A DNA stretch of 64,000 nt, taken from the NCBI RefSeq assembly GCF_964204645.1, contig NC_134027.1, positions 25,134,560 to 25,198,559 of the forward strand, read 5' to 3'. Position 1 is the first letter of the stretch. Every line of letters starts with the position of its first letter. This DNA is from Tubulanus polymorphus. Its lineage: Eukaryota; Animalia; Nemertea. Shown piece by piece: positions 1,020-60,433 of the stretch. Both the position numbers and the translations under genes were made by a program. The notes under the pieces were generated by a model. The model searched no databases. It saw only the letters and a program-made list of their open reading frames with translations, and was not told where the DNA came from.

Positions 1020-9038
<8,019 letters not shown>

Positions 9039-22217: not shown

Positions 22218-24890
22218 GATTAGATTAAGATTAAGATTTAAATTTATTGCTCCAGAAAATTGTACATTTTTTGCGAGCACAGGATACATACAAAATAAAC
22301 AGTTTGCAGTTATAAAATAACAGTTGCTAGTCATACAATAACTAGTTATATTTACAATTGAAAAGTTATTTTGAAAAGTTCGTGTATACCAGGAACAGCG
22401 ATGAGGTGAGGCTAGATAAGGCTATGTGCCTTTTTTATAAAAACTGCAAGATTCCTTAGGACGTTTGGGTTTTCTGACGTAAAAAGGTTCATAAATTTTC
22501 TTATATTGGGAAACGTTACTATTTGTTGCGGTATGTACCGACTTCTTAAACTTTCGAAAAAAGTACACTCCATTATAAAATGGTATTCGTCGCCGATTTG
22601 CCCTAGGTTACATTTGGTACAAAGTCGTTCATTTCGGGGGATATTTTCATATCTTCTTGTTTCAATCGGTAGATTATGATTAGAGCAACGAAACCGTATT
22701 ACATTTGTCCTGAGGTCAAATGGTAGTGCTAATGAACATACTTCCCGCCCCCAATTCGGCTTAATAATTCTATAGGTATCTAGTTTTGTTGAAGCTGCGA
22801 TAGTCTGGTGCCATTTCTGTTTGAATTGATCTTGTAAACATAATTTAACAGTTTCTGATAAATACCGGATATTCGGGAAAGATTGTTCGTACCAAATGTA
22901 ACCTAGACCACAGTTTTCTAAGATAGACTGAATACAAGTGATCCATTTACTGGTCTTACCATTTACATGATTTTTTATTAGGATACGATACATTTTACTA
23001 GAATGAGTGTTGCTCTCTGTGATCAGATGTCCCCAAAACTTAACCATTCTGACTTTTATTTGTATTTCAAAAGGAAAACGACCTAATTCTCCATAAACCA
23101 TAGCATTTGGAGTTGCACGTTTCAATTTCAATAAGTATTTGCAGAACATTAGGTGTATTTTCTCGATTGCATCTAAGTTCGAGAAACCCCATATTTCACT
23201 ACCAAAGGTAAGGATCGATCCCACCATTGCATCAAAAATTTTAAATGCAATGTCTATAGTTAGGGAGTATTGCTGTACTTTTTTAAGAACAAAAATAGTG
23301 CTTTTTTTGCTTGGTCACAGATATCTGTTTTGCATTTAGCGAAATTTCCAGTATAATTAAAGTGTCCTCCCAAATATCTAAAGTCAGATACTGTATCCAA
23401 GGCTACCCCCCTGATATAGAAAATGGGCTGTCTGTTAGATCGTCTTTTTTCGAAAACTATGGCTTTTGTTTTTTCGACATTGATTACTATCTGCCATGTT
23501 TGGCAGTAATCCACAACATGGTCAAGTATATTTTGCAGTTTGGAAGCATTGTCAGATAATAATAAAGTATCGTCGGCATATAAAAGTATTAATATGTTAA
23601 ACCAGAAATCATCCAGCTGGAAATCTAATCCTTGACACCCTTTCTCGTATAAGAAAGACTCGAGGTCATTGACAAATATGGAGAAAAGCACTGGTGACAG
23701 ATTTTCCCCTTGACGTAACCCAATTTGACTATCTATGCTTTCTGATAATCGATCGTTTACCGTGACCTTAGATTTAATATGTTGATACATGTTATGAATC
23801 ACTCGGAGGATATTTCCTGTAATTCCCGTTAAAATTAATTTATGCCACAGTGCTTTTCTCCATATTGTATCGAATGCTTTTTGGTAATCAATAGATATAC
23901 AGTAAAGCTTCCGCTTATTACTAGTCAGAATATCTATAAGGGAATGCAATGTGAAAATATGGTCCATGATACTACGATTTTTTCGAAATCCAGCTTGATT
24001 TTCATTCAGTAATTGGTTATCCATCAAAAACTCCTCTAAACGTTTATTAATCAGGCTCGTAAACAATTTGCTCATACAGCTTAATAGAGTAATTCCTCTG
24101 TAGTTATCCGGATTGGAAGGGTCTCCCTTATTCTTAAAGATTGGAGTGATAATACCTACAGCCCACTCTTCCGGAATGCAGCCAGTTTTCAAAATATTGT
24201 TAAACAACAAAACGATGATTTCATTTTCTGCAGTTTTGAGGAATTCGTTTAAAATTTCGTCGTTTCCAGGGGCTTTATTATTTTTGAGGCATTTTATACA
24301 TTTAGATATTTCTCCCTCAGTGATTAGCCTATTAAGTGCATCATCATTGTGGTCATGAAGGAAGTCATTCACATTGAAAAAATTACGATTATCATTTTCT
24401 GCACTACGGTTTTGGTTAATGACGGAAAAGTGGTCAAATAAATCATCTAGCGACGCTTTACATTCATTTGGTTTTTCCTTTCGGAAATATTTCCAAAAAG
24501 CTTTTGGATCGTCTTTTGCTAACTTTCCTATTTGGTCATTGTGCAATTTAACTTTCTTTTGTTTTGATATCTTTATCGATGTTTTATACCTCTTATACGC
24601 CGAATTCAGATTAGTTCTATTTTGGACGGATCGATATCTTTTATAATTTCTTTTCGCTTTCCTATAAATTCTACGGTCTCGTTTCACTTTATAGTCATGT
24701 AACAAAGTTTTTGGTTTGTCAAAGTTAACCCGGCTTCGGCCCATTGTGGCCCCTGCCGCCTTATTTAAAATGTCGCATATACGCTTATTCGCACAGGCGC
24801 TGTCTATTATATCATTTTGAAGTTCGATATTTATTTTATTCAATTCGGTTTGGTTGATTGCCTCTCTAAAAACATCGCTTCGACCACTAA
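22218..24890 (-). mobile_element. 5'-truncated non-LTR retrotransposon (RTE-X-like; CR1/L2 not excluded), RT ORF broken by one frameshift
   Basis: ORF 24843-23260 has KAPGNDEI, NYRGITLLS, NQAGFR, DYQKAFD, GLRQGENLSP and LLYADD. It continues in another frame (23227-22412) to RFRCSNHNLPIETRR..RLCTKC..GDEYHFIMEC. AATAAA at 22248-22243 is followed by an (AATCT[T])n tail. No endonuclease domain is present. Confidence 0.93.
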
Positions 24891-26439
24891 CAATATGACG
24901 TCACCTGCACGCGAATTCCATAGAAAGTCATAATTCGGATACTTGGTCAACCTGAACAATGGTTTTTCCCCTCATAACCAACTTATTTCTAAATTCATCT
25001 GCAATTTGGTTAAACTTAAATGTTCCTTTTGTTCCCCTTTTCTCGCCCTCCTTGTTTTGTTATAATTTAATTTACTCAATTACTGTCACTCTCTCAACTT
25101 TGAATCACTTTTGTTTTAGTTAATTACACCTTAGCTGAATTCGCTCTTAATTACTTTATCTATTCAACTTAATTATGTCTCTATGTTCTGGTATATATAT
25201 AAATATTTCTACTTCTTGTTGATTCAATATTCCTGAAGATGACTATTAGGTTTAAGTCGATCAACGTCGAATGAATAAAAACACATCAGCTATACAGGAA
25301 ACATTTTTCGGACTTAATTTTTCGATTTATCAGTGTGGGATTCTCAACTATATCCATAGGAAGTCACAGGAGCTAAAAGTGATTTGATGTAGAAAATATT
25401 CTCAAATCCACAGATAATGAAGTTGATGTTGTTGATGATCATATCGGGTTTGCTGGTTACCAGTGAGAATAAAAGCGCAGCAGAACCAAATATTTCTGGA
25501 AACAGGGGTACATATATATATTCCATGAATTTCTAAAAAAAAATTCAATAAAAAGCGCGTAAAAAAATTCATGTCGAAAATGGTAAAATGGCAAAAGTTA
25601 TAAGATCGCCTGTCACAAATTATAAATTTGTATAATTTCAGATTTTGAGGATGAAAACCCGGGCGCACTTGGTCCCGATTCAACTTCAGAACTGGGAGTG
25701 TTCGCAGAAAACTCGGTCACGATTTCCGCAACTCGAAAACAATCCCGAAAAAGGTATTTTTGGTTTACAACAGCGAGTTTTTATTCTGTTTTACAAGTTC
25801 AATAAAAACGGCCTTTTGTCTATTAACAGAAATTCAGATTGAAAAGAGAGGAGTCGATAAGAATGGGTGTTGGTGAAGGGGACATATCGGTTTATGAGTA
25901 CTGACAAAAGTTGTTGCCAGAAAACTATGGGAAGGTGTTGTTTATAGCGTTTATTTTCTGATTCTTGAAACAATTAATTTTCAAGTCGAATAGAAGCAAT
26001 AACATGCAGTCAACAAACCCGCTTAATTCGGATTTTGGTCTATAGAATATATTATATTCAGAAAATATTTGCAATGCATTTTTTCGGCGATATACAAAAT
26101 GATTTTTAATCCGGATTTCTCGTAAACCGGATGAATTTTGTTGGTCCCAAATGATCCGAATTAAGCGGATTCTACGGTATAATGTAATGTACAAAACCTC
26201 ATTTCTAGTTGAGCTTTTTCAATTTTTGAGCCCACTTGAAGGAGGGAGACCCAGCGTTGAGTTCACTTTCGGTTTGTCGTCTGTGAAGTTTTCGACACGC
26301 TTTGTTTGATTGCCTTTCTATCAATTGATTGATACAAACTATAGGGACATATCATCAGCCAAATAAAGACTGGCTTGATCAGAATCAAAATGGCCGGTCT
26401 GTATGTATAATCAGCAAGTGATTGAGCCCAAAGTTCATT

Positions 26440-32759: not shown

Positions 32760-33342
32760 TTCGTTAAAAGTCATCACAGTGTCCGAAGTATTATTATTTA
32801 TTATCCTGAGTAGAAATAGAACTGATTGATAACCATATTGGAGTAATATTGATAGGCCTATGTATTTGATGTACCAAGGCAAGTTGTCGTTACGGTTACC
32901 TACAACGTCGTTTGGGGAACAACGGCTAGGTACTAGACTAAAGGCGAAAAAGACTGAAGTTGCCCTAACATTTTGTATGCTGAAGTTGTCCTGACATTCT
33001 GCTACAGTGCTTGTAGGCTCCGCTCAGACAGATCAAACAGATCACTTGAAGAGTGCCCAAAAGATCGTTAGGGCAGTAGGGCCTACCCAAACGATAGCTA
33101 CAATAGTGTGCGAAAGGTAGCTAGAGAAAAGCCCAAAAGATCGCTAGGGGAGTGCCCACAAATATGTCCCTGTGAACTAAAAGACCGATCAGTGAAGCTT
33201 ACGTAATCGTGATGTGAGAAACTCTTCGAAGAGTTGAAGGGTAGGAGTGATATCCGAGTTGGATGGGTCGGAGAGATACTACGACAAAACGCGGCCTCTC
33301 AATCGAACGTTTATCTCGTCGGAGGTCGTCTCCGGCTGGAGT

Positions 33343-36300
33343 ATGGATCGTATGGATATGACTGTAAGAGAGATTGTAAGCGGCGTTCTATCATGGTTCG
33401 GTCGTCTCACCGTCCGAGACGTCACCGTATTCGCGTTCTGCGTAATCATCCTCTATCTGTGCGGCGCCAACGAGCGGTACGCGTTCGTTCCGCGATGGCG
33501 CGTAGACGCCGACGTCGATATGTTCGCTAATCGTCGATACCCGTCGGTCGCCGAGACGCTTCCGCCGCCGATCGTCACCGATTTAGAAAGCGACGGCTCG
33601 AACGAAGTCGTCGTCGTTACGAACGAGTTTCGATTGCGAATTTACGCGACCGTCGACGACGACGATCGGTCGACGTACGTTTTACCGGAACCGCGGATTA
33701 AAACGGACATCCAGCTGCCGCTTAACGTGTCCGAGGACGGGCGCGTCAGTCGGCCGGTAGCTATGGCGACCGGGTATCTGTTGAAGGAAGATGCGGATGT
33801 GCCGATTTTTAAACAGGTAATCGTAAAACGGTTCTCGAGACCGATGGCAGTCTACATTAAAAAATCATCTCATTAATTAGGCTCCATTTTTTATCTAACC
33901 TTTAATAGCGGTAGCACCGGGGGTGGGACACCGAACTTTTTCATCAATTGGTTTTTAGGGAACCATTTTTTGGGAAGGTCGAACGAACAGCGACCTACAA
34001 CTAAAATCTGCAATATTTTCTCACTTGCATCTCCGACATTATTAGCAGTGGATAATGTAGTTTCCTCTAATGAAAAATGAATGATGAATGAATCGTAACA
34101 TTCAGAACCTAGAAATTTCTCTGAATCACTTGGCAAATCAGGAAAAACTTGGGGGCATTTGAAAATGGGCGAACAGTGGCCGCCCTGTTTATGGAATTAG
34201 AACCAGCAAACTAGAAACAGTCATTACTACTGTAATAGTAAACAATGATTATATATTATTGTAATTTATAGGTAATCGCTATTGTAACCGATGACTGGAA
34301 TGTGTTATGTTATAATCATAAGCTGCGTCTGCTGTGGAGAACTCAGTTAATGGATGTCGGTCAATCTCGCGATAATTACTACATTAAATCCATGCAGATC
34401 GTCGTCGCTTCGATTAAACTACTGAAGAAAGACGAAGGGTTAATTCTGGTCGGCGGAAGTTTCGCTCATAAGATACATCAACATGCCGGCGGACAGTGAG
34501 TTATTAGTGTGATTACTGATTAATGTCTATTTCAACCTGACTTGAGAGCATTCCAGGTGGCCTAGCTCACTCAGTTTTGGTAGTACATACCTGATAAAGG
34601 TCTTAGTAAGACCAGAAAGGACTGGCAGTGGACCTAAATCAAAATTTTTTAATCCATTTGAAACTGTATTGAAGGATATCCAAAAAGTCTTCACTGAAAG
34701 GGGTTCATGAGAGAAAAGAGACTCCATGATTTGAAAGTTCAACAATGTCTCCATGCCTACCAACTGAAGTTTGGTATATAGGCATGGAAACATATTGTTA
34801 AACTTTCAAATCATGGAATCACTTCTCTTCATTTAACCCCTTTCAGTGAAGACTTTTTGGATATCCTTCAATACAGTTTCAAATGGATTAAAAAATGATG
34901 ATTTAGGTCGACTGCTTGTCCTTTCTGGTCCCATTAAGACCATTATCAGGTATGTACTACCAAAAATGAGCGCGCTAGGCCATCCAAAATGCTCTCAAGT
35001 CAGGTTGAAATAGACATTAGACTGTTTTTTATTGAGAGGAGTGGGAAAGCCACAGAGAGTCGAGGGGGAGAGAGGAGAGAAGAGTGGGAGTGAGGGAAGT
35101 GAGCTCGAAGGGTGGGAGTGGAGAGAAGAGAGACATAAGGAGATAGTAGTTGGAGGGTGCTTTAAGTGAGTGGAAGAGAGGTAGAGGAGGGAAAGAGAGG
35201 GAAAGAATGAGGTAGGTAGAGTGGGAGTTAGAGATAGAGAGGTAGGCCGAGAGGAGGGAGAGAGTAGAAAAGAGAGGGTAGTAGCGGAGAAGAGATGGTT
35301 GGAAAGAGGAAGAGGAGGGAGTGAGAGAGAGAGAGAGGGAGAGAAAGGTGAACAGAGAGGGAAGGGGGATTACCGGTATTTTTTGTAAATCTTAATATTT
35401 CTTAAATAAACTCATAAACGTTAAGCTATACGTCCCGACCAATTTTAACGTTGAGCTACTTAGCTGAGGCCACTGAACCGACCGCCGATAATCATGGTGT
35501 ATGATATTAATTTCTAGATTATTTGGTGATGATGGACTGAATCAGCAGAAAGAAACTCATCACAATGACGACGATAGTTTGACGCATTTCACTACGTTTG
35601 CCTTGAGCGCGACTGATGGTACAGTTCGATGGCATCATTTACCGGCAGATTTCAAACAAACACAATCATTCGAAAAGGTAGGTCTACTGTTTATAGTAGA
35701 GTGCCAGGAGAGAATTCGGGAATCGGGTAGAGACCAATTAAAACCTGCTTTGATTCTCAACACTCGGTATCCAGTAAACTGCTACCGCATTCCCTGATTC
35801 TCAATAATAGCAATAGTCCCAACCCTACCAAGTTCCCTGATTCTCAACTCAGTGAAATATTGATAGCAGTCCCAACACTACCCAGTTCCCTAATTGTTAA
35901 CACTTTTAACGATATTCTTATGAAGGATTTCGAGAATTCACATCATTGGAAATTAGCACTGAAAAGAGGTCACCTTCACAGAGGAGAGAAACCATGGACG
36001 GATTACAGATACGATTTTCTCAAATATCTGGTACGTGTTTCTTCACGGAGATAATCATTGTTTCTATTTATAGAAAATTTACCCTGGTTATTCGTCCATC
36101 CTTATTCTGTTATCATCAATCTGTACCCTGTACCCCACCACCCTAGACAGACATTCGATGCTGGGTGCTTTATCACTTAAAATCCAATGTTGATTGTTCG
36201 CACTTCACGTGTGTTCAGAGTTTCGCCTGAGACATTTTTGATTGAAAATGAACTACAAACAACTAAGACATTTTTATCAGCACAAACTGATCATCTGACA

Positions 36301-39079
36301 TTCATACTTCACACATCTGATATCCTTACTTCACACTGCGATGTTGACCGTCTGAAGGGGTGGTTCCAGGCTGCGGATTGATGCATTGAAGCTGGATTTT
36401 TAAAGTAATAACAGTTTTCTGTGTAATAGTTCTTGATTAATCCAAATCGTGAATGAACAGATAAGATACTGCTTTATTTTTCGATGCAATCCATTTTAAA
36501 ATCGTCACTCTGCTTCAATTCAGCCTCATTCCTGGACGTCGATCGAAGATACGAAATTCACGTTAGGAAATATCAAACGTTCATCGGAGTCGGAGTCGGC
36601 TCCGACTGAACCGGAGCCGCAGGAAACGAGCACTCTATCCGGTTTTATCGATCTACAAAACGTGTTTACCGGCGTCGACGCCGGGGATGAGGGCACCACC
36701 GGTCGAGCCGTCGATACGAACTGCCTCGTCGTTCACAGCGATCACGGCGTCGAAGTTTTAAACGTCGTCAGCGGGCAACCGATCGCGAAACTGCGTCTGC
36801 CAGTCGGACGGCAGACGTACGCCGATATCAGCGGCGACGGAGAAATCGAGGAGATCGCGAAGAAAGTCCGCGCTGCGTCGGCAGCGACGGACGACGGCGT
36901 CGGCGCGACCGATTGCGACGCGGTAGTCGGGAAATTCAAACAAGCGAAGACGGTGTTCCAGGTGGCGCTCTGCGACCCGGCCGAATACTCGATGTATAAA
37001 CTCATGACCGGTAAAGAGAATTTCATCGAGGATCCGTTAACGACGATACCGCCCCTCGTCGTTAAGAGGTAAACTAACAAATCTGCGGTTTAAAGTTAGA
37101 TTTCTGCGAAACTTTCGAAAAGGTCTCAAGAGTTTATTTGTTTTGGTTGTCCTGAGCTCAGTTCGACGGTTGTGTGGGATTGATTTGACTCCCAGATTGG
37201 ATTTGACCGCCATCGGGTGCCCCAAGGGCTAGAGCCCATATTTCTATGAATTGCTACTAGTCCTACAGTTTTTATCAGTTCCAGATTAAACTCGGCACCA
37301 ATGATCTGTGGGCTAGACTCTTCTTTTGATGTTCTATCGGGGTGTAAGACTACAACGATATAGACCCTTTGTCTTGTGGTGGCCACCCGGCAGTGTCTTG
37401 ATTGTTGTTGTTGTCTTTGCAGGATAGCTAAACAGCCCGGGTTCGTAGGATTGTTACACCATCGTTTAACGGGCGAAGATTCAATTTGGAAACAAAAAGA
37501 GAAAGATTTGATATTCGTGACGAGTAACGGCGCGGCGGTGTCGTACGACTCGAAGGGAACCGTTCACTGGATCGCGAAGACTCAATCGAAATGGTCGCAC
37601 ATGTCGCGTATCGCCATCGACGACGCGTTCGGCGACGACTCGACGAAAGATATTTACAGAAACGCATTTAAACCCACGGCGACCGTCCTACCTCTTCAGA
37701 AACACGGGCCGACGGTGAGTGAAAGTTGCAGAACGGCTCTAGGCAACCGTTCAATAATAGAGCGATCTTCTATTTGCGTATTAAGTGAAACCAAATGTCA
37801 GTTATTCGGGACAATAGTCCAAAAAAGTGAATCACGCAACTGAACACGGGTGCTGTAGTTCGGACCTAGTTCTAAGATGGCCGATAATGATAGATGCGTT
37901 AAAACCGAACTATATTGCATTAGATAATAAGCTCCGACCATTTTTAGACTACTTAGAAAATTATGGAAAATTGCACCCCAGTGCAGTGTATTACGGGCAT
38001 ACTACTATAGTGTGCCTGTATTGTAGTGCGGTGTATCATTACTTACTAATATTTACAATGTTTGACAGTTGCTGTCATCTTTCAATGGTGATTTTCACTA
38101 ACTAATATTTACTCGTATACACCGCACTGCGGGGTAGGTGCATTAGCGGGTAGGTGCATTATACACCACACAGCGGGGTAGGGGCTATATAATTTCCAGT
38201 TAATTCTGCCTTGTTAACATTAGTGGTTTTTCGTTCCTATTTATAGAACAGTTTACTGGTGATCGGTTGGGATCAGATGACGTTGATCGATCTCACGTAC
38301 GGAAATATTCTCGGCGTCCATAAGATTCCGTGCGTTCCGAACTCGAACGCGGTGATCGGCGATTTCGACAATGACGGATGGTCCGACGTTATTCTAGTTT
38401 GTCCTTCAGGGTAAGTTTACTCGCGAGAACTAAGGGATAACGGAACCGGGTTCTCATTCATGATGATCTATCGTTTCATATGATTTTCATCGTAATTAGT
38501 GTTTAAATGTTAATGATAATAATATATCTTCTTCAATAGCGCGGTTATAAAATCTTAACCACCGCGCTTTAAATTCTAAAACTACATTATAAAAGTGCAA
38601 GTTAAAAATTAATCACCACAGGTGTTTTTAAAAAGAAAAGTTTTCGATGTGGATTTGAAGTCTGAGACAAATGGAGACTCTCTTATGCTACGAGGTAGTT
38701 CATTCCAAAGATAAGGAGCTGAATTGTAAAATGACCTACTTCCGATACCCTTTTTTGGCGTAGGTTTAACTAAACTTGTGGAATCATTACCAGAACAAAG
38801 TGTTTAGCAACGGATCCCTTGTGACCATACTATATCATGTCATAAATTAGTATTGATAATTTGTCATATTGTGTCGGGGTTTTTGAAAATATATATATGA
38901 TCGATTGTCTTATTGATATTTTCAGTTATTTAGGATTCAGTATAAACCCGAGTACTAACTGGACGTACGCGATACTACTGCGAGTAGCCGTTATATTGAC
39001 GATAGCTTTATTGAGTTGGTGCTGTACCCCGGATCAGTTTGATGACGATGAAGATGACGACGATGATGATTCGAGATGA
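33343..39079 (+). CDS. NERD1-like (plant At3g51050 family) FG-GAP/integrin-alpha-type beta-propeller membrane protein, 8 exons
   Basis: Exons ~33343-33816, 34272-34495, 35518-35677, 35926-36030, 36524-37068, 37423-37714, 38247-38410 and 38926-39079. Motifs LPPPIVTDLESDGSNEVVVVT, RPVAMATG, KQVIAIVTDDWNVLCYNHKL, GLILVGG, HFTTFAL, PHSW, YADISGDGEIE and IGDFDNDGWSDVI follow my recollection of Arabidopsis NERD1. C-terminal TM helix and acidic tail. Confidence 0.85.
34521..35019. mobile_element. Fold-back MITE, ~500 bp and almost fully palindromic, TA-flanked
   Basis: taatgtctatttcaacctgacttgagagcatt... pairs with ...aatgctctcaagtcaggttgaaatagacatta over roughly 230-bp arms. Confidence 0.88.
35035..35370. 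repeat. Polypurine (GA-rich) low-complexity tract
   Basis: Mostly G/A for ~330 bp in intron 2 of the NERD1-like gene. Confidence 0.85.
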
Positions 39080-39167
39080 AGTCATCACAGTTTCAGGGTT
39101 ACGGGTTGAAAACTAACGACTCAAGTGTCGTAAAAGTTCCAGTTCCGCAGGATTGTGGGTTAAAACT

Positions 39168-39468
39168 ATGGACTCCAGAGTCACACATATTTTCTGTTGC
39201 ACAGTTGTGGCTCTGAGGACTCCAGAGACATTCACATTTTTCAGTTCCACAGTTGTATGGGTTAAAACTATGGACCCAGTTCCACAGTTGTGAGTTAGAG
39301 TTAACTCAGAGTTAAAGTTAGTTCATTTTCAATGTTTTAACCCAGGGTCAAATCTTAACTCAGAACTGTGGAACTGGACCCTGGACTCTAAAGTCACGTA
39401 TATTTTCTGTTGCACAGTTGTGGCTCTGAAGACTCCAGAGACATTCATATTTTCAGTTCCACAGTTGT
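39168..39468. repeat. ~88-bp direct duplication flanking a CCAGTTCCACAG-family MITE (39271-39381) downstream of the NERD1-like stop
   Basis: tggactc.a.agtcac..atattttctgttgcacagttgtggctctga.gactccagagacattca..tttttcagttccacagttgt at 39168 and 39382. Confidence 0.8.
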
Positions 39469-40466
39469 CCCTAATTCTGCCTAGTTCAAAGAAACGACTA
39501 TAGAACTGAATTCAGCAGCTTTTATTTGACTGTGATCATAGTTTGCCCGTGATACACGTTGAGTGTGTAATACATTCACTAGGGGGCAGCAGCAGCAGCG
39601 GGTTTGGATGGTAATTTTATAGTCCACTGATTGTGTATTTAATAAGAATGTATTATTTTTACACCACGTATCACAAGATAAACTGTTATGAGATTTTTAT
39701 ACTCAATAATGCGTCGAATCGAAATAAACTCTTTTTCATAGATTTTCATTTGTTTCTTGTCACGATGAATAGTTTTGAGTTGTCTCGTTAAGATGTCCTA
39801 AGTTAGTGAGGATTTTCATGTGAAATATAATTTTGATAATGAGGAATTCTGAAATTGCGGACAGGGGCAGATGAAGCCTACCACTGGAACCGTTCTAGCG
39901 GGCCACGAATTTAAGCGGATCCCTGTTATTACAAATTAAATTTGACGTAACCACAAAATTACTGGAGGCTGTAAAATAACAAATTTTTCTGAGGGAGGAT
40001 CTTGCACCCTACTGGACTGAGTGGTACATCGAGAACTGAGGATGCATCCGTGTCTGGCATTCTGAAAATAGGTAGCAACAATTGATGGCGTAGGACAACA
40101 GAAAGAGAGAGGCGTTAGTTTTAAGACCTACGCAAATTAATTAGACCCGGGCTGGGAACGGACTTCGTTAAGGTATGAACTGAGAATTATCCAGTAATAT
40201 TCAAGATGACAAATCGATTAAAACCAATAACGAGTGAGATAACATTTGAGTGTTGTGTATTATTTATGAAGTTTAAGCCTCTTCAGCAACTTCAATTCCA
40301 TCACAAACCAAACCCCATGAAGTCATTTCACAATCTGAAACAATAAGAAAACAATTTGGTATGAACACAAAAAAGTATACCACGGAAAAAAAAATGTTGA
40401 ATATACGTAGATTTGTTACGTTTGATACGTAGATTTACTACTTGTTAGATTTGATACTTATTGTAA

Positions 40467-40730
40467 GGGGCTGTCCATAAAAGACGTCTGCACAAAATTG
40501 CAGAATTTTGCCCCCTCCCTCATGTCCACAGAAAACATATTGTGAACTGTTTTTCCTCTAGCTCGAAGTTGAAGTAATCATCCCCATAATGCACTAAATT
40601 ACAGGAATTAAGCAGGGAGAATTAGAAGGATGTCCTCCTCTTAATAATCACCCTCCCCATGATTGTCTACAAAAGTCCAAAGTTCACAACCCCCTCCTCT
40701 GGAACTTGGCCGCCTTTGATGGACAGCCCC
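40467..40730. mobile_element. MITE with GGGGCTGTCCAT TIRs (Harbinger-like)
   Basis: ggggctgtccataaaagacgtc ... ggccgcctttgatggacagcccc. Confidence 0.75.
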
Positions 40731-41019
40731 TTGCTAGATTTCTTACGAATAGATTTATATCTTTTATTTTCCTATTTCAATAATTTGTTCGTTTTCATCA
40801 TTTTTGGTTCAACATTGCCTCACCTTTAACCAGTGGAAAGCGTGCGAAAAGCAAAGCCGCAGGAGTCAGTTGCACAGTCAAGGTTTAGATATTAGGCTCA
40901 ATCTAAGCTCATCAGGTTCTGAACCCGATGTTTTCTGGCTGAAGTCGTGAGTGCGCAACTGGACCCTGCTATATACCATCTATGCTGGAGAATATTTTTG
41001 TAAACTTACCTGATTTTCA

Positions 41020-44000
41020 CTAACCAAATAATTTCTGCCACAACCTTTTCCACCAGGGGAGTTTTCCCGTTTTACTATTCTCTATAGAAACGTGAATATC
41101 TTTCGTAAGTTTTCATCGCAGTCTAGAAGGGTTCGGGAAGTGAGTGAGGGATGGGTTGGGGGTGGGGGTGGCGATGTGGACAGCTGGACCGCTGTTCATG
41201 AATCGTGCATTGTGGTAAAGAAGAAATAACTACTTTGGTGCGAAAGGAACGTGTTCAAAGATATTTTCGTTCGGTGCTGGAAGTGTACATGCAGGATCTC
41301 CAAGAACCCGTTTCACAGTCGTCAGTTCAGATTTAACTCATAGTTAATTTATCAAAAATGAACTAATTTCAACTCGGAGATGAATTTAACTCACAACTGT
41401 GAAACTGGATCAAAATGTGTAACAAACATTTCTCCGGGTTTTAAGTAGGGTATATCATCCTTTGTGCGAGGATCCATCGTGACTTGTGCATCGTTTAAAA
41501 CACAAAATTGATTCTCAATGAAATACTATGGAGTCAGATCGCAATGAATCTAGAAGAGCACTCGTAAACAGCAAATCCAGAAAAACTTCTTCCACATTTT
41601 CCGAATAGATTCTCTCAGCCATTTTAAACAATCATGAAAATAATCTGGCCGTTTGGATCTTGGAAAAAAGTTTTCTGTTAACACTGTTTTCTTGTGCTTT
41701 CTTTCCAATTGGTCTAGGTTTTGATACTCTCAATTCCGGCCTGGTGGTTGAAGACCATTTTGAGTTGATATATCAGATGAGCTATAAAAGCAAGCGGCAA
41801 GCGCGTGTTGCAAAAAGCAATTAGGCTTATCGAGATGTTAGCAAATATAGATATGATATACGCCATTTTTAGCCGATAAATAAATGTTTCGCGGAAGAAT
41901 CAAAATCGATAGAGCAACGATATCGTGAATGTGCGTGTGTACCTAGTAAAAACAATCCTTTCAAAAATCGATCTATTTGAAAATAGATTTAGCTACCATC
42001 ACTTGAGCCCAGTATTCGTTTCCACCACGGCAATTTGTTTTCCAGGAAATCTGCAATATCGTTTGGCGAATACGTTGAACATCAGAAAGGAAAATACAAT
42101 TAAATTCTACTAGTTTCAAATCCGAACACTCTTAAATACAAAATCTGAACTGAATGTAAGATATTTGCTAGAAAAATGATGATTTTTTTTCTGGACAAAC
42201 TTCCACAGTTCCGAGGCTGATGTCTTACTAGGGCATGTTTCGATTGCATCTCCGATTACAAACTCTCTACCGGCTACGCTATTCCGCAATAGGTATAGAG
42301 TGTATTCTGGACGAAAAGAACGCACCAGATCGAAGAGAATTAGAATTGGTATAGAGACCACAATCGAAACCTGCCTCAACTCGCATCAGTATAGGTCGAG
42401 GCCAAAACGTGGAACTGGGTGCCGCAGCCGATGAAGCTTTGACCGTTGAATTTGAATTTCGATGATTCAACGAACAAGTCTTTGGATTTGGATGGGCTAT
42501 AAAGGAACTGAAGAATCAGGTCATATATATCATTTCGACTGAAATATCTAAATTTATGAATACAGTACCTTTACACTTAGAATAGCCGTATCTATCCTCA
42601 TCGGATTTATCTTCGCAGTTGAATTCACCGTCACAAACTAACGACTGATCGATACAGTCGAAATTACCGCACATGAACTCTTTACCTTCCACGCAGTAAT
42701 CTGTCAACGAGAACGAAAAACATCTTTTATAGATTCAATACACGAAGGATGATTGAGAAGACATGATTGTATATGAAATTCGCCTCGTAAAGTCCGAGAA
42801 GTTTCCTTGAGCTAGTTACGACGGTTCAACTATATCCATATAATCATCTTCAGGAATATATATTGTTCTTTCGGATTTTTGTTAAACATATCGTTACTAT
42901 GAAACCGGGTGTTTCATCAAGGTTAGAAGCCTCGATACGTATATTCGCAGTCGAAGAGTTGGGAGAGGAGAGATGGTTGGAGCAGATATTGAGGGATATA
43001 GGAGAGGCGTTAGAAGAGGGACATCGGGGGAGAGTAGTGCTCACAGGGAAATGGCATTATGTTTTCCTAAATCTACATGTCATAAACAATATGAAAGATC
43101 TTCCAACCAACGATAGAATAAGATTTTGTTAGACCTTTTTTATAAAGGCCGTTAGGCCGTTTTTATACAATCGTATAAAATCTTGGAATAGCGTCAACTT
43201 TTGACCAACCAACGTCACGCAGAGCAAGCTGATATTTACTAAATATAGATACGTACAATTAATCGTAAGTGCATCATTTCCGTGGGTTTTAAGGATCTCA
43301 TGAAGATATATGATCATGCATGATTCTGTTAAAATGGCTCGTCACCAAAAACTAAGACATGTGTCGATAGAACGTATATTCTGGTTACTATCAATTCCGG
43401 ATTACAATTCTCTACCGGCCACTTCTATCAGGTGGTTTACAGATTCAGTTCCGATATCGGTATACGGTAGGGTGAATTCTGGTTAAAACAAGCGCGCCAG
43501 AAGAGTTCGTTTGTTACCTAACGTTGGTGAGCTTTTATAATCGGATAGGCTTATACCGACGTGGTTTGTGAAAATATCCGATCGTAACTGAGTACAGAAT
43601 ATAATTCCAGCGACCTGCCTTTTAATACACATTTTTGAATTGTCGGGAGCTTGTAACATCTTACCGTCGTGATATTCGGAGAAAATGATTTCGAATCCGC
43701 TCGTCTCAGTGTCGGCGTCACTCGTGAAATGAAGTGTCAATACATTCTGGTCGGAATGGGGCCACGGGGCGTGTGTACTATCACCGCAGAATCCCATCAT
43801 GTGAACTGCACACAAAATAAACGTGATTCATTTAACTAAATGCCGCTGAATGCTGAGAAATTTAGAATTTTTGCAGAATGGTTAGACATAGAACTGAAAA
43901 AAATTCAGTCGAAAAATACTTTCAATGGCCTCAAGGCTTCAAAAAAGAACTCAAATGCTCGTACAAAACTCGTACAAAATTGTAAAAATTTGGTAATCAA

Positions 44001-52400: not shown

Positions 52401-55265
52401 ATTTCGTGTATGCTGTCCTGTCCTTTGTTTTGATATTTCAGATTTATTTTGTTCGCGGCCAGGTATAGGTCTCCTTGTCTACATACAGAAAATAAATGAA
52501 ATAGGCGTTCATCATTTCCATAGTGACACATTGATGAATACGCCATGAGATAAATCTCATTAAGTCCTGATAGTACTCTCTATACGGGTACCCCAATTAG
52601 AACGAGTGGTTGAACACATATCGAAAATAATGTGGATGAGGCGAAAAGTCGTAAATTATATGAATTTTTTAAAAAGAAAAAAATATCACGGAAAATTCAA
52701 CCTAAAATTGATTTTCGTTTGGAAAATCGCATAATTGTTATCAAAGATATGACAATCCCATCGTTTCCATTTGACTTCTCGACTTCGAGATTTGTCTTCC
52801 AAGACTGATAATATTTATTGGATTGTCCATTTAACCTCGCGACGGTAGGCCAGCTGGTCACTCGTAATTGATATTGATTGCAACAGCTTATCTCAATTAG
52901 TACTCTGACATTCACATGTTTTACTTATACATTTTTTTTCAGGATAACGACTGATTTGAAATTTCGCAACTACAAGAGCCCTCGACTAGAGGCGAGTACC
53001 GCATTCGACGCCCGGCTGAGAAAACCGCTTTCAAACGCGAACAGCTACCGGTCGGTGGACCGATTCAGCCGCGAGTACCGAACGAAAAAAATCCTCGCCG
53101 ACGACGAGCGATTAGCGACGATGCAAAAACGGAAACAGCAGAAAGAGAACCGATCGCGTCACGGGTCGAGTATCGAGTCGAATTCGATCGCCAGTACAAC
53201 GCCGAGAAAATGGCGCAACAATCCGTTAGATTCGAATATCGACGACGAAAAACGTCTGCCGTATATCGATCAGAAACGAGCCAATCAAAAACTGCGCAAA
53301 GAATACGGCGATAACATCCGGCAGAAAATGTTCGCGTCGAAAAATCGTCAGAAATTTCGCGTTAATTACGATTACGTAGATTTGAATAGTTCGTTAAGTT
53401 CGAGCGATAAAGTATTACTGGGCGGCGACGATGACGTCACGATGGACACCCCGACCGCCAGATACATCGGGAGTAGAAATAGAAACGGCGTTCGCGAAAC
53501 CCCGGATTCAAATTACAGTAAATCGTCTTCGAGGAAGAATGAACTGTATACCGGGTACGGTAATCAGAAAACGGGACGGGGATTTGTGTCGCGGAGTTTA
53601 CCGAACGAAACACGAATACCCAGACGACTACCACAGTTGAACGGGGATAATCGGAGCAGTCCGCGTTTACCACAGCTAGATCTAAGCGACGTAAATCGCC
53701 GGAGCACTTCGCGAATGGAATCGGAATCGCCGCGTGCTAAAAACTATACCCGCGGTTACATGAACAAAGGCAATTTCTTTCCGACCGAACCGGATATTTC
53801 ATTTTCGCCTTCGATTGACTTCCCGGAAAATCGGAGACCGTTACCGTCCGTGAAGCGGGTCAACACGCCAACCAGTCCCGATCATCTATTCAACGTTCAT
53901 CACATCGCGCTGTCTCCGAGAACGGCGAAACCAGCGGCGGCGTCAACAAAACGGTCGACTCCGCCGCGATATATGGGCGATTATGAAATTCTCGACGAGC
54001 CGACTCACTACAGTTCGCGAAGTACAAGTTCAGAAGATTTCGCCAGGGATAGCCCGAAGTATATAGCCTCGTACGGGCTGGAGAGCGTTAAAATCGCTAA
54101 TCTAATGAGGACGGACTACGACGAACGGTCACAGGAGCGACGGAGCAGTCGAGAGGAGCGTGGCTGGAGCGGCGGTGAATGGCGGGATAATTCGGTTTTG
54201 TCAGGGGCGAGTAAAATCAGTGCCGAGTCGAAACTCAGCACCGAGACCAAGCGAGAGAATGAATCGAGTTTTACCGCTGTAGATGCGGAGCAGCCGGGAG
54301 AATCGGAAGATCTAGATCCGACCGATTCGACCAATATTATCATTGAAGATCCAGCAACAACAACAACCGACGATATGGAACGCGGAATAACCCCGATTCC
54401 TACTGATGGATTTAGCAGACAGAAATCTTCAGAGGCCGGAGAAGGCACTGAATCGCCAGCACTGAGTACCGACTTGAGCCAACGGAAATCTCCGAACACT
54501 AACGACGATGATGCACGGTCCCGCGAAATAACTCCCAGTGATGGCGATTTGGGCAGGCGAAAATCCCCCGAAGCTGACGATGTCACGAATGAAACTAACG
54601 AAGCGACTCCGAAAACCGACGAAGATGTCAGCGAATCGAGAGTCGCGACGCCATTTCCGAGTAGCAGCGATTTGGGCAGACGAACGGCTGAAGAAGAAAC
54701 CAGTGAAGCGATGAATGAGAGTGAAAATCCGACAACTCCAACAGCCACTGAATTACTCGTTACAGAAGAAGAGGAAAGAGCAACCACGTCGACTCCAGCT
54801 AGAGATGACTCGGTAACCGACGCTGATATTTCAACCAATGATAATCAAGATGACACGGCGACGACCAATCACGAGGAATTTCCGGTTGAAGAGACTCAAA
54901 CCGACTACGAAGCAGAAATTCGATTTTCCGTAGATGAATTCGACCGGGCTTCGTCAAACATGAGCCAAATTCGTCAGTCACCTTTCGACGAGAAAGACGA
55001 GGGCTCGACGTCGGCGACATCTATCGTCGTGGATGGTGACTGCGAAGCAGACGATCCGAAATCTAGGGCCGATTATTCGGATGAATTGAAGAGGGAAAAT
55101 TCACCTGAAATTATCGCTTACGGTTTGACAGTACCCGGTACTGTACAGGCAGAAAGATTGATCAAAATCAGCGATAAACAATCCAGCTCTGATGGAGCCG
55201 ATATCCCAGAGATACGAATGATCACCGCTACCCCGCTACCACATGACTACTTCGACAATTTATAG
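49423..55265 (+). CDS. Large, probably intrinsically disordered protein of unknown function (~840-850 aa)
   Basis: Frame-compatible phase-2 exons 49423-49583, 50626-50667, optional 52442-52462, and a 2.3-kb last exon 52943-55265. R/S/P-rich basic first half, E/D/T/S-rich acidic second half; no recognisable domain. Confidence 0.75.
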
Positions 55266-56329: not shown

Positions 56330-58148
56330 GCGTGCCCGGACAGCAACATCCCAACTGTAAGACTTCAACATTCGATCCGATACTACGCGCATGGGTTTCT
56401 TACTAAGCCATGCAGAGGCTATCAACCTCACATCGCTGCCCGGCAAAATATAAGTTTTGATGAGATTATTGCGGTGGAATCGATGGAATCGATCTGTCTG
56501 ACTGTAACAACACTTGGTTCCCCGTCGATTCTACGTCCGGTTACGTCGTTTCACCGAATTACCCGTCGTTAACGCGCGGTGTTGAATGTCGTTGGTTCCT
56601 ATACAGTTCTTTACCGGGAACTTTCAACATCAAACTATATTACGATATCGAGCCATCAATATTCTGTGATGAAAACTATCTTCTCGTCGGTGAGTCCGAT
56701 TGCAGATTCTGCGGTGATGGAGACCGAGAAATCCACCGTAACAATTCGATCTCGTTTATGTTTAGAAGTAACGGCGATGGTGCGCGAGGTAGTCGGGTTT
56801 ATATCGTGTATCGTTATGAACGAAGCCATTTGAATATAAGTCATAACTGTAGAAGCAATTTGCTTACATTGGGCAAATTACGAACATCGAAGGGGTACAA
56901 ATTTGCAATAAATCGATTAACATGCCAGCTCTATCTAGAATGGGTCGGACTTGCGGATAAACTTGGTCTGAATCTGACATTCACAGGTGTTACTTTTAAA
57001 ACGTATCCTATATTCGAGTTGGCTTCGGTTAAAATTCATGACGGCTGGAACACCAACAGTGAACCTATCGCTAATATACCTGAACAAATGGGACTACCAT
57101 CGGTAACATTTTACACGAAAACCAACAAGGCCGTCATCGTAGGTTTGCCGTATCAAAACATATTTCATGCGCAATTACTAGTGCAAATTTACAAAATATC
57201 AGATTGACTGATCAATTTTCCTCCTGTTCAGACCTGATGGATAACGCAGTCCTCAGAGCGATCATCTGGGTCATCGCTGCATTCAGTTGCATTGCAAACA
57301 GCTTTGTGATTCTATTTCGTTTTCGATCAATACGATCAATTTCATCCTCTGAATCACGTAGCACACCTTCTGACATTCTCATCATCAATATCGCAGCTTG
57401 TGATTTTCTGATGTCGATTTATTTGTTTGTGATCGCGGGATCAGATTACGTATATAGAGGAGTTTATTTCCTAAATTCAGAAACTTGGACGGACAGTTCG
57501 CTGTGCGGTTTCGCTGGTGTTATGGTCACTCTATCATGTGAAGGCTCATTGACGTTTCTGTGTATTCTAACACGTCATAGATTTACAAAGATGGTTCATC
57601 CATTTTCTGGAAGCCGAATAACATCTTCGGGATATGTATGTTTCATATGTTTCCTGGTTTGGTTTATAGTTGGATTTATTTCATTAGTGCCACTGATACC
57701 ATCATCTTATTTCGGGGACCACTTCTATGGTACTACTGGAGTTTGTTTACCTATGAATTTAATTTCTATTGATGTCAACGCCTGGCAATATTCATTCGCA
57801 ATTTTTGCCGGGTTCAACTCGGTTATACTTGCAACAATAATGATGACTTACGCGCAAATGTACAGACTCGTATCGGGAAGCAGGTCTGGTTCGGGTAGAA
57901 TTGATCCAACCGAACTGATTCTAGCGCGTAGGAGTTTGGTGATTAATCTTTCTAATTTATTTTGCTGGCTGCCGATAATTACCGTTCAGTTTTGCGCGGT
58001 GATTCGAGTAGAAATACCGAATCAGGTGGCAGCTTGGCTGGCGGTTCATTTCCTACAGATCAACTCGTCCCTTAATCCCCTTCTTTACACGAAAATAACT
58101 ATTGATATGAAATTTATACAAGCAAGAACTAAACGCCGACACCGATAA
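56330..58148 (+). pseudogene. Intronless, disrupted GRL101/LGR-type GPCR: lectin-like remnant, CUB, degenerate CUB, hinge, 7TM
   Basis: Frame from ~56464 reads DYCGG..SGYVVSPNYPS..VECRW..FCG..FRSNG (CUB), then IHDGWNTNSEPIA (second CUB) and stops at 57207. An overlapping frame gives DQFSSCSDLM (LGR hinge), INIAACDFLMSIYL, GTTGVCLP and NSSLNPLLYT. In-frame stops lie upstream at ~56400-56463. Confidence 0.75.
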
Positions 58149-59100: not shown

Positions 59101-59392
59101 ATATTTCACAGTGAGGTGGTGAAGTAATATATCTACATAAGAGCGAATTATCTCTTTGTGCAAATGTTACAATTTGTATTCAATTCAATTTCATGAATAC
59201 TGTGCATTCAGTCTATATGAATATCTGCAAAGTTAATCTTGTTAGGCGTCCGTTTTGAAAATGTGACGCCGAGATTTTGCTTAGATTTTAAGTTCTATTC
59301 GTCAACTAATTTCCATCTTCCGCGGCTTCCATTGTACGTGCGGGTGTGTGGGATTGATCGCTTGTTGAAGCTGTCGCAGTACATGTTTGGTG

Positions 59393-60433
59393 ATGGAGTT
59401 TGCAGCATCGATGCAGAGCAATAGCTCGTGGTCATGCCCCGAACCAGAACCAGTACCGTTTTATTACAATCGTTACTACACCGTTGTATACGGTGTGGGT
59501 CCACTTTCCGTCATCGGTCTAACTCTGAACGTGATAACAGTTGTTATATTTAGTCGTTTGCGTAGAGTACACCGTTCTGTTACCTTACTGATGGTCCTGG
59601 CCATCGTAGAGACTGCTTTCCTGCTAAACAAACTCCCGTTTGGACCGCTGAGATACGTGGTGTATCGCCTCATTTACGGGCGTTACGTGTTTCAGCGACG
59701 TTCCTTCCACATCTTTCCACACTTGCTACACGGGTTGGCGATTGCTAACACTACGCTTCTCGCCACTCGTAACTGGGTGACAGTTTTGATTCAAATCGAG
59801 CGCCTGTTAATATTACTTTTCCCGTTAAAGGCGCCGACAGTGATTACACCGCGTCGATTAATTGCATTCAGCGCATCGATGAGCTTTGTAATTTTCCTGT
59901 TAAAGATGTTAGACTGGTTGTTCCAACCGACGCTCGAAGTTATTACCACTGGATGTCCAGCCCTGGATACCGTCATCGTCGTAAAAACTTTTAAGGGGCG
60001 AGTTGGCGTTCCAATCCAAATCATAAAGCGCATCTCCATCACACTTATACCCGTATTGCTGACCGTTCTCATCGATACGTCCTTGCTAATATGGCTCACA
60101 ATTAATAGGAGGCGCCGGCGGTCACTTCTGCGACCGTCAGCGACAGTGCCGCCTGGTGGTGAAACGAATTCAAACTCTCAAACGAAAGCTACTCTTACAG
60201 TTGTTTATATTTGTTCGGTGTTTTTAATTCTAGAATTTCCTCAAGTTTTCATTACGATAGCCAGACATTTATTTAGGAATAATAAAATTTGGCCGGAATT
60301 CTTTACTGTCGGGGGTTTGACTACTTTACTCAATTCTTGTATTAACTTCTTTATATACATCGCAGTCAATAAGAACTTCAGAAAAACACTATTTGCAATC
60401 GCTTCTCGTAACAAAAACAAACAAATTCTATGA
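59393..60433 (+). CDS. Intronless rhodopsin-class GPCR, FMRFamide/sex-peptide-receptor-like
   Basis: Seven hydrophobic segments; GLTLNVIT (TM1), LMVLAIVE (TM2), RNWVTVLIQIERL..LFPLK (TM3), FLILEFP (TM6), LLNSCINFFIY..NKNFRK (TM7/H8); N-glycosylation sequon near the N-terminus. Confidence 0.88.
   Translation: MEFAASMQSNSSWSCPEPEPVPFYYNRYYTVVYGVGPLSVIGLTLNVITVVIFSRLRRVHRSVTLLMVLAIVETAFLLNKLPFGPLRYVVYRLIYGRYVFQRRSFHIFPHLLHGLAIANTTLLATRNWVTVLIQIERLLILLFPLKAPTVITPRRLIAFSASMSFVIFLLKMLDWLFQPTLEVITTGCPALDTVIVVKTFKGRVGVPIQIIKRISITLIPVLLTVLIDTSLLIWLTINRRRRRSLLRPSATVPPGGETNSNSQTKATLTVVYICSVFLILEFPQVFITIARHLFRNNKIWPEFFTVGGLTTLLNSCINFFIYIAVNKNFRKTLFAIASRNKNKQIL

Follow-up and report, generated by a model that had tools for sequence, protein, structure and literature searches.

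The window analysed here is a 64,000-nucleotide stretch of the genome of the nemertean Tubulanus polymorphus (contig NC_134027.1, positions 25,134,560 to 25,198,559), and its minus strand carries a gene for a putatively secreted protein with one CUB domain, one LDLa module and a short C-terminal tail taken from alternative 3' exons. Two of these exons, A and B, are annotated; their tails share the peptide KLPWWKR, and neither restores the hydrophobic anchor that most of the examined relatives carry at this place and that the gene has lost. We give an even chance to the reading that the tails are amphipathic and, chosen by splicing, act as weak to strong peripheral membrane tethers instead of that anchor.

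Constant exons and alternative tails

The CUB-LDLa gene has four constant coding exons, with phase-1 introns throughout. Exon 1 (45215-45143), which maps to isoform residues 1-24, contains the ATG and a predicted signal peptide, MSSKIFWILLLQVWTTLA, and ends in a phase-1 donor. Judged by composition and model, this putative signal peptide has a basic-hydrophobic-small pattern, a Kyte-Doolittle hydropathy over 19 residues (KD19) of 1.27 and a helix at residues 3-17 of the AlphaFold2 model; its region is the sole hydrophobic stretch of the protein. Exon 2 (44431-44186, 246 nucleotides (nt)) and exon 3 (43805-43665, 141 nt) encode the 5' and 3' parts of the CUB domain (Pfam PF00431, E 8e-9 and E 0.0022, respectively), and exon 4 (42700-42569, 132 nt) encodes the LDLa module (PF00057, E 9.2e-9) and ends in the donor AAG/GTACTG, all three being in phase 1 at both ends. 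One CUB followed by one LDLa, found in the Pfam matches and supported by the CUB fold matches of the AlphaFold2 model, places the product among the single CUB-LDLa (LDLRAD2-like or CULD-like) proteins.

RefSeq predicts two isoforms of 217 residues each, X1 (XP_074644927.1), which ends in exon A and whose RefSeq name is taken from matriptase/ST14, and X2 (XP_074644928.1), which ends in exon B. Both match the window exon by exon and are the sole two members of their protein cluster. A search with exon 2 returned a single protein, 100% identical, which is isoform X2 of this palaeonemertean, and no separate longer or membrane-anchored isoform was found by it among proteins of 145-2000 residues. 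Alternative isoforms in RefSeq predicted models usually rest on aligned RNA. Reads of three runs from one study cover the introns and contain no splice joints, which says nothing for or against expression. The two forms are already in RefSeq, though uncharacterised, and no description of this gene or of its tail type was found in the open-access literature searched.

Exon A (42050-41989, opened by a CAG acceptor) encodes DFLENKLPWWKRILGSSDGS and a stop, with net charge 0, and the coding part of exon B (41081-41020, opened by a TAG acceptor) encodes ENSKTGKLPWWKRLWQKLFG and a stop, with net charge +4; each is read in phase 1 over 62 nt. A first-pass annotation of the window had placed these two minus-strand acceptors and their open frames correctly, and its expectation that both exons are used agrees with the annotated isoforms. 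KLPWWKR is common to A and B, with 5 of 21 nt differing across its seven codons and every difference silent, so that the earlier remark on synonymous codon use stands. The motif is the sole 7-mer peptide repeated in 40501-42600. When 2.25-kb stretches were simulated 3000 times with an order-3 Markov model, two phase-1 peptides opened by AG shared a 7-mer in 3 of them; in any frame or strand this happened in 5 of 300 simulations. The motif starts at an offset of 14 nt in one exon and 17 nt in the other, one residue out of register, and for this reason the equal length of A and B is probably incidental; a meaning for it was rejected on this point, and also because exon M (below) is longer and an unrelated frame at 40334 is 62 nt as well.

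Outside the motif the DNA likeness of A and B is near random: 56 of 1000 shuffles align locally as well as they do, or 18 of 1000 when the flanks are narrower. The pair would therefore be either an old duplication kept under selection on the peptide or a product of convergence. The same phase, tandem position and homologous peptides are those of tandem-duplicated alternative last exons, with homology at the peptide level and weak DNA likeness. In contigs of other haplotypes, compared over 40639-42082, none of 7 substitutions and no insertion or deletion falls within the coding parts of A or B, a test of low power since these cover 124 of about 1440 nt. A 4-nt insertion lies just after the stop of B, and the LDLa exon of the second haplotype has 4 differing sites, 3 of them synonymous. 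Among the data of this comparison, the run labelled X1 may be the window's own source.

Between A and B lies M (41644-41550, CAG acceptor, phase 1), an unannotated candidate tail exon which the first-pass annotation had missed and whose 31 codons encode DYFHDCLKWLRESIRKMWKKFFWICCLRVLF and a stop, with net charge +4. M is A-like at its start and B-like at its end, and is predicted to form a long amphipathic helix with a hydrophobic Cys-Cys end. It was first spotted by eye, and the criteria used on it were picked post hoc. A six-frame reading of the window contains the pattern hydrophobic-W-basic-basic-hydrophobic-hydrophobic three times, namely in A, B and M, and a looser version of it 21 times. 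For in-register likeness to A over 14 residues M ranks first of 1608 peptides opened by AG, and its RKMWKKFFW and the KRLWQKLFG of B are identical at 15 of 27 nt. Its helical wheel has a clean hydrophobic face spanning about 21 residues, its maximum KD19 is 0.67, and its 18-mer hydrophobic moment of 0.70 is reached by 5 of 892 peptides, a count that includes nested copies of M. In 2000 simulated stretches of 2.1 kb the single criteria were satisfied 34, 66, 23 and 5 times, and likeness to A and likeness to B jointly 0 times. The single nucleotide polymorphism within M (41562) is synonymous, and the nearby insertions or deletions at 41664 and 41523 lie outside it. From these sequence features M is rather probably a homologous exon, while its use falls somewhat short of an even chance. 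The acceptors of A, M and B are all weak, with 10-11 pyrimidines in 20 nt. The word CCAAACG, found upstream of both A and M, was rejected as a signal, as such 7-mers are common to many acceptor pairs.

Relatives, tail properties and proposed membrane tethering

A full-library search gave 1504 matches at E <= 0.001, of which the best 150, mostly long multi-CUB proteins, were examined; the counts of relatives given below refer to these 150, and the library shows relatives above 50% identity only through one representative. Thirteen proteins match as single CUB-LDLa stretches and all were examined. Eleven have a transmembrane (TM) helix, whose start lies 5-42 residues beyond the LDLa core, one has a hydrophobic end like that of glycosylphosphatidylinositol (GPI)-anchored proteins, and one, from Patella, has neither and ends 18 residues past the LDLa core, possibly as a truncated model. 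The maximum KD19 after the LDLa is -1.03 and -0.56 in the two Tubulanus isoforms, versus 2.64-3.85 in the 11 TM relatives and 2.29-3.85 in 12 of the 13, so that neither a TM nor a GPI anchor follows the LDLa and the earlier proposal of a CUB-LDLa protein free of both, with a predicted signal peptide, is supported. The tails of A and B occupy the alignment position of the relatives' TM helix. The closest single-module match is a TM-bearing Tubulanus paralog, XP_074661864.1 (43% over the matched stretches), and identity to the single CUB-LDLa proteins is 28-38% over the alignment, with 12 invariant columns. Judged by its sequence, the gene is homologous to the single CUB-LDLa membrane proteins but devoid of their anchor.

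These type I membrane proteins (LDLRAD2-like or "NETO-like", in molluscs, hemichordates and nemerteans, with CULD in Drosophila) have a signal peptide, as is predicted for the Tubulanus protein, and likewise one CUB and one LDLa, to which CULD, in the passages of PMC4732287 that describe it, adds one TM helix. Unlike them, the Tubulanus protein has no TM helix, no cytoplasmic tail and no GPI signal, and it ends in 20-residue basic-aromatic tails from alternative exons. NETO1/2, Drosophila Neto and the C. elegans proteins SOL-2 and LEV-10 also have CUB followed by LDLa, and NETO2 is the best CUB plus LDLa match in the PDB by sequence (E 1.2e-12), with the highest TMq, 0.57, among the fold matches listed; fold and sequence matches also include PCPE-1, enteropeptidase and neuropilins. 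This second group has 2-5 CUB domains and a TM helix, and its spliced parts are intracellular, whereas the Tubulanus protein has one CUB and no TM helix and its spliced part would be extracellular. Passages of PMC9083331 define the NETO/SOL-2 auxiliary subunits by two CUB domains, an LDLa and a TM helix, a definition that excludes a protein with one CUB and no TM helix, and describe two spliced C-termini in Drosophila Neto. NETO/SOL-2 subunits are further marked by binding to ionotropic receptors, which they modulate. The characterised CUB-LDLa relatives, as portrayed in PMC9083331 and PMC4732287, are membrane-spanning helpers of receptors and channels, acting as receptor auxiliaries or trafficking factors.

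The best 11-mer of tail B has a moment of 0.744, a charge of +3 and an interface sum of -4.42, and that of tail A has a moment of 0.586 and an interface sum of -1.26. Among 151 C-termini of matched proteins, one reaches the moment of B and nine that of A, and none matches the moment and interface sum of B together. The AlphaFold2 model gives the CUB-LDLa core a predicted local distance difference test score (pLDDT) of 82 and places a helix on both tails, at 207-216 in B and 206-212 in A. A homodimer prediction for the B isoform scored 0.00, which counts neither way. The CUB-LDLa head is acidic, with a core charge of -8. The membrane-targeting sequence of the bacterial protein MinD is, as predicted for the tails, a short C-terminal helix of the pattern hydrophobic-hydrophobic-basic-basic-hydrophobic-hydrophobic. 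The moments are similar: 0.77 and 0.82 in the core 8-mers of A and B, and 0.68 where E. coli MinD ends, over its last 8 residues. In passages of PMC13537761 the MinD helix is a weak reversible anchor that becomes stronger when doubled. MinD is bacterial and cytoplasmic and meets an anionic membrane, and it has no homology to the Tubulanus tails, so it serves as an analogy only.

According to the tether reading, the basic Trp-rich tail would fold into an amphipathic helix at a lipid interface and hold the presumably secreted protein reversibly on membrane or lipid surfaces, at the place where relatives have a TM helix. The CUB-LDLa head would be a ligand- or receptor-binding adaptor like that of the anchored relatives. 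A, M and B may derive from one tail exon by old tandem duplication, and the choice among two annotated and likely three alternative 3' exons would set the strength of the tether, from A (short and neutral) through B (11 residues, +4) to M (a helix of about 21 residues with the hydrophobic Cys-Cys end). The first-pass annotation had seen splicing as a switch of the tail; since both tails have the same core, tuning is a better word than switching. In a wider and more doubtful form of the reading, which we hold only tentatively, the three exons A, M and B are a cassette of graded extracellular amphipathic helices that replaced the TM helix of a CUB-LDLa receptor; splicing would then dial both the tightness and the lipid surface, be it the cell's own membrane, anionic lipid that is exposed, a lipoprotein or a microbe. 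The strongest form would be the unannotated M, whose Cys-Cys end may carry a lipid or a disulfide link.

By analogy, the gene probably works in the way of those in which the C-terminal exon used determines the anchor. In AChE, with its T and H forms, and in TFPI, with alpha and beta forms, alternative C-terminal exons place a secreted head, as set out in passages of PMC5943944 and PMC9314982; the AChE T tail is described there as Trp-amphipathic (PMC5943944) and the TFPI-alpha tail as basic (PMC9314982). The heads are unrelated to that of the Tubulanus protein, and AChE and TFPI choose between anchor types (GPI versus peptide), whereas Tubulanus would choose among paralogous tails of one type.

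Several observations weigh against tethering by these tails. The likeness to MinD, which the first-pass annotation had put forward, holds for the moments of the core 8-mers. When each tail's own residues are shuffled, 1263 of 5000 shuffles reach the moment of A, which is thus unremarkable for such a composition, and 315 of 5000 reach that of B, a borderline result. The tails have a pLDDT of 48-59, and the input alignments put the TM helices of relatives at this position, which may bias the helix call. Of the other proteins among the best 150 of 1504, 0 of 149 end in a PWW(K/R) tail. Word-based searches returned the protein itself, or itself and P0147, and no close ortholog; these searches are insensitive, and one recovered 2 of 15 aligned proteins. 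For M, the likeness to A over 20 residues ranks only 4 of 1131 (rank 3 without the first residue), its DNA is not significantly like that of A (273 of 1000), another AG precedes the acceptor by 15 nt, no good donor follows, the exon is absent among the annotated isoforms found, and its three Cys would have no partners. Animal cells have a largely neutral outer leaflet, to which polyanion or protein partners are suited just as lipid is. Further searches also returned no counterpart: none of the 13 single CUB-LDLa relatives has a KLPWWKR-type tail, a metagenome pattern scan gave 73 pattern matches and 0 relatives, and the ESM Atlas gave CUB/LDLa clusters only, with nothing tail-specific for residues 150-217 (best score 0.76).

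Docking of the tail on a polyanion or a protein partner is an unlikely alternative. Strict conservation between A and B is confined to KLPWWKR, a short linear motif, and does not extend to the length of a helix; B and M are both +4, and passages of PMC9314982 and PMC5943944 offer precedents. Against this stands the neutral A. The AChE T peptide has about 40 residues, and the Tubulanus tails are much shorter. M moreover keeps the amphipathic pattern without KLPWWKR, which argues for a physical property rather than a motif.

It is improbable that the KR of the motif is a dibasic convertase site at which both isoforms are clipped to a soluble CUB-LDLa-KLPWW and short peptides, that of B being amidated at its Gly. 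KR does end the block shared by the two tails, the divergence begins right after it, and B ends in Gly, the amidation signal suggested at first; A and M have no C-terminal Gly. Substrates of the amidating enzyme PAM expose a free Gly at the C-terminus within the secretory pathway. Furin cleavage calls for Arg at P4 and disfavours Ile or Leu at P1', and here P4 is not Arg and P1' is Ile or Leu. The piece released from A would have no features of a signalling peptide, and the site is absent in register from M.

Quite improbable too is a lineage-specific truncated paralog with one working tail, in which the other exons would be decaying duplicates used at a low level with no functional difference. 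The ortholog missing from the word-based searches, the low-information second half of A (GSSDGS), the unannotated state of M and the weak acceptors of all three exons would suit it. Peptide identity has persisted, however, while silent sites and flanks diverged, and the haplotypes differ by 0 of 7 substitutions in the coding parts of A and B and by one silent site in M, again with low power.

A still smaller probability is given to an antimicrobial or lytic helix that a CUB-LDLa recognition head delivers into body fluid or mucus. B and M do combine a cationic, Trp-rich composition with amphipathicity, and nemerteans are described as secreting toxic mucus; A, on the other hand, is neutral and short, and a single 11-residue helix on an acidic head of 200 residues would be a poor pore former. 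The body text of a paper on nemertean secretion proteomics, PMC7460313, makes no mention of CUB or LDL, although its supplementary tables could list such proteins, and the characterised relatives, in the passages cited above, are receptor auxiliaries or trafficking factors. Lysis and amidation of the tails, both raised at first, are unsupported guesses.

Hardly credible is exon A as a relic of the R/IVGG activation segment of a CUB-LDLa-trypsin protease without its catalytic domain, possibly a decoy, an idea that arises from a BLASTP alignment of the tail with the activation segment of the matched protein P0032 (PWSHR) and from the matriptase/ST14 name of isoform X1: a profile of 21 segments scores A at -3.9, versus 0.3-34.2 for true ones, with 759 of 5000 shuffles as good, the R/IVGG and trypsin domain of CUB-LDLa S1 proteases are lacking, no trypsin or other protease domain was found in the window, and the best single-module relative is the TM-bearing paralog of the same species. 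The tail as an autoinhibitor of the lysine pocket of the LDLa was also considered; the module has Leu at the position that, in the consensus, is usually aromatic.

The 3' architecture and surrounding sequence

The stop of B is followed by 10 nt of untranslated region (UTR) and by a perfect donor, CAG/GTAAGT (41019-41004), with the last exon base at 41010; counting both strands, the window has only 3 such perfect sites. The T-richest downstream acceptor, a CAG that opens at 40334 (40357-40273, with 13 T in 20 nt), likely starts the last 3' UTR exon. Because of these two sites, B is probably penultimate, 72 nt long, with an intron of the 3' UTR behind it, and the description of both tail exons as terminal, given in the first-pass annotation, becomes doubtful for B. 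The first canonical AATAAA downstream of the coding exons (40768-40763) would lie inside the 41009-40335 intron if this is spliced. Read in phase 1 from the LDLa exon, 40334-40273 gives 62 nt and an unannotated 20-residue tail, net -6 and non-amphipathic, which if used would make another unanchored isoform. In a pairwise comparison with the LDLa, 12 of 1000 shuffles do as well as this frame; a decayed copy of the module was nevertheless rejected, as unrelated tiles of the window score higher.

Exon A has a weak donor-like TAG/GTACAC after 41943, which in type resembles the donor of the LDLa exon. Between A and B there is no canonical AATAAA; A may be a cassette exon, or an alternative acceptor with a UTR running through M and B. 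Past its stop, the frame of A runs on through an amphipathic-looking DRFLKGLFLL (41972-41943) up to the donor-like site. This frame is also opened by an acceptor at 41972 and is possibly a remnant of a longer tail. An acceptor at 42496, which had been listed as an alternative junction, opens a phase-1 frame of 72 residues (42496-42279) with no hydrophobic anchor and is in none of the annotated isoforms found. Mutual exclusion through docking/selector RNA pairing is not supported, with 88, 73 and 157 of 200 shuffles as strong. Two inverted copies of a repeat that has internal inverted arms and a very high copy number in the genome, resembling a miniature inverted-repeat transposable element, lie at 39261-39385 and 41299-41423, the latter between M and B.

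The CUB-LDLa gene stands tail to tail with a multi-exon plus-strand gene (33238-39080), in which no Pfam match passed and whose motifs we take to be FG-GAP-like. Also on the plus strand, 1612-9038 is a class I aminoacyl-tRNA synthetase gene by Pfam, presumably that of the mitochondrial leucyl-tRNA synthetase by its motifs, and 52878-55265 is an open frame of 795 codons, of low complexity, rich in Ser, Thr and acidic residues, with no Pfam match. At 56464-58148 (plus strand) a weak CUB match (E 0.031) is followed in another frame by a rhodopsin-family seven-TM domain (E 1.7e-21); by these matches it is a CUB-bearing G protein-coupled receptor (GPCR), with an intron or frameshift near 57100-57200. 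A rhodopsin-family GPCR in a single open reading frame follows at 59369-60433 on the plus strand (7tm_1 E 8.8e-8, Srw E 3.8e-7). On the minus strand, 22412-24900 contains a reverse transcriptase frame of the type without long terminal repeats (RVT_1 E 2.1e-38), which a second overlapping frame continues, and it is, by this arrangement, a retrotransposon copy with a frame break. Also on the minus strand, 49589-49323 is a high-GC frame, opened by an acceptor and running to a stop, with CxxC near its end and no significant Pfam match; it may be where a minus-strand gene lying upstream has its last exon.

Meaning for CUB-LDLa proteins

The new elements are the probable third exon M, the likely UTR intron after B and the contrast with the family. 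They come from one gene in one nemertean, for which the searches gave no ortholog, and this limits their reach. The tether reading predicts an exon that is absent from the annotated isoforms found, and, if true, it would describe an anchor tuned by splicing, which three synthetic peptides could put to the test. It would also offer a simple evolutionary path from an integral receptor to an extracellular adaptor that attaches reversibly.

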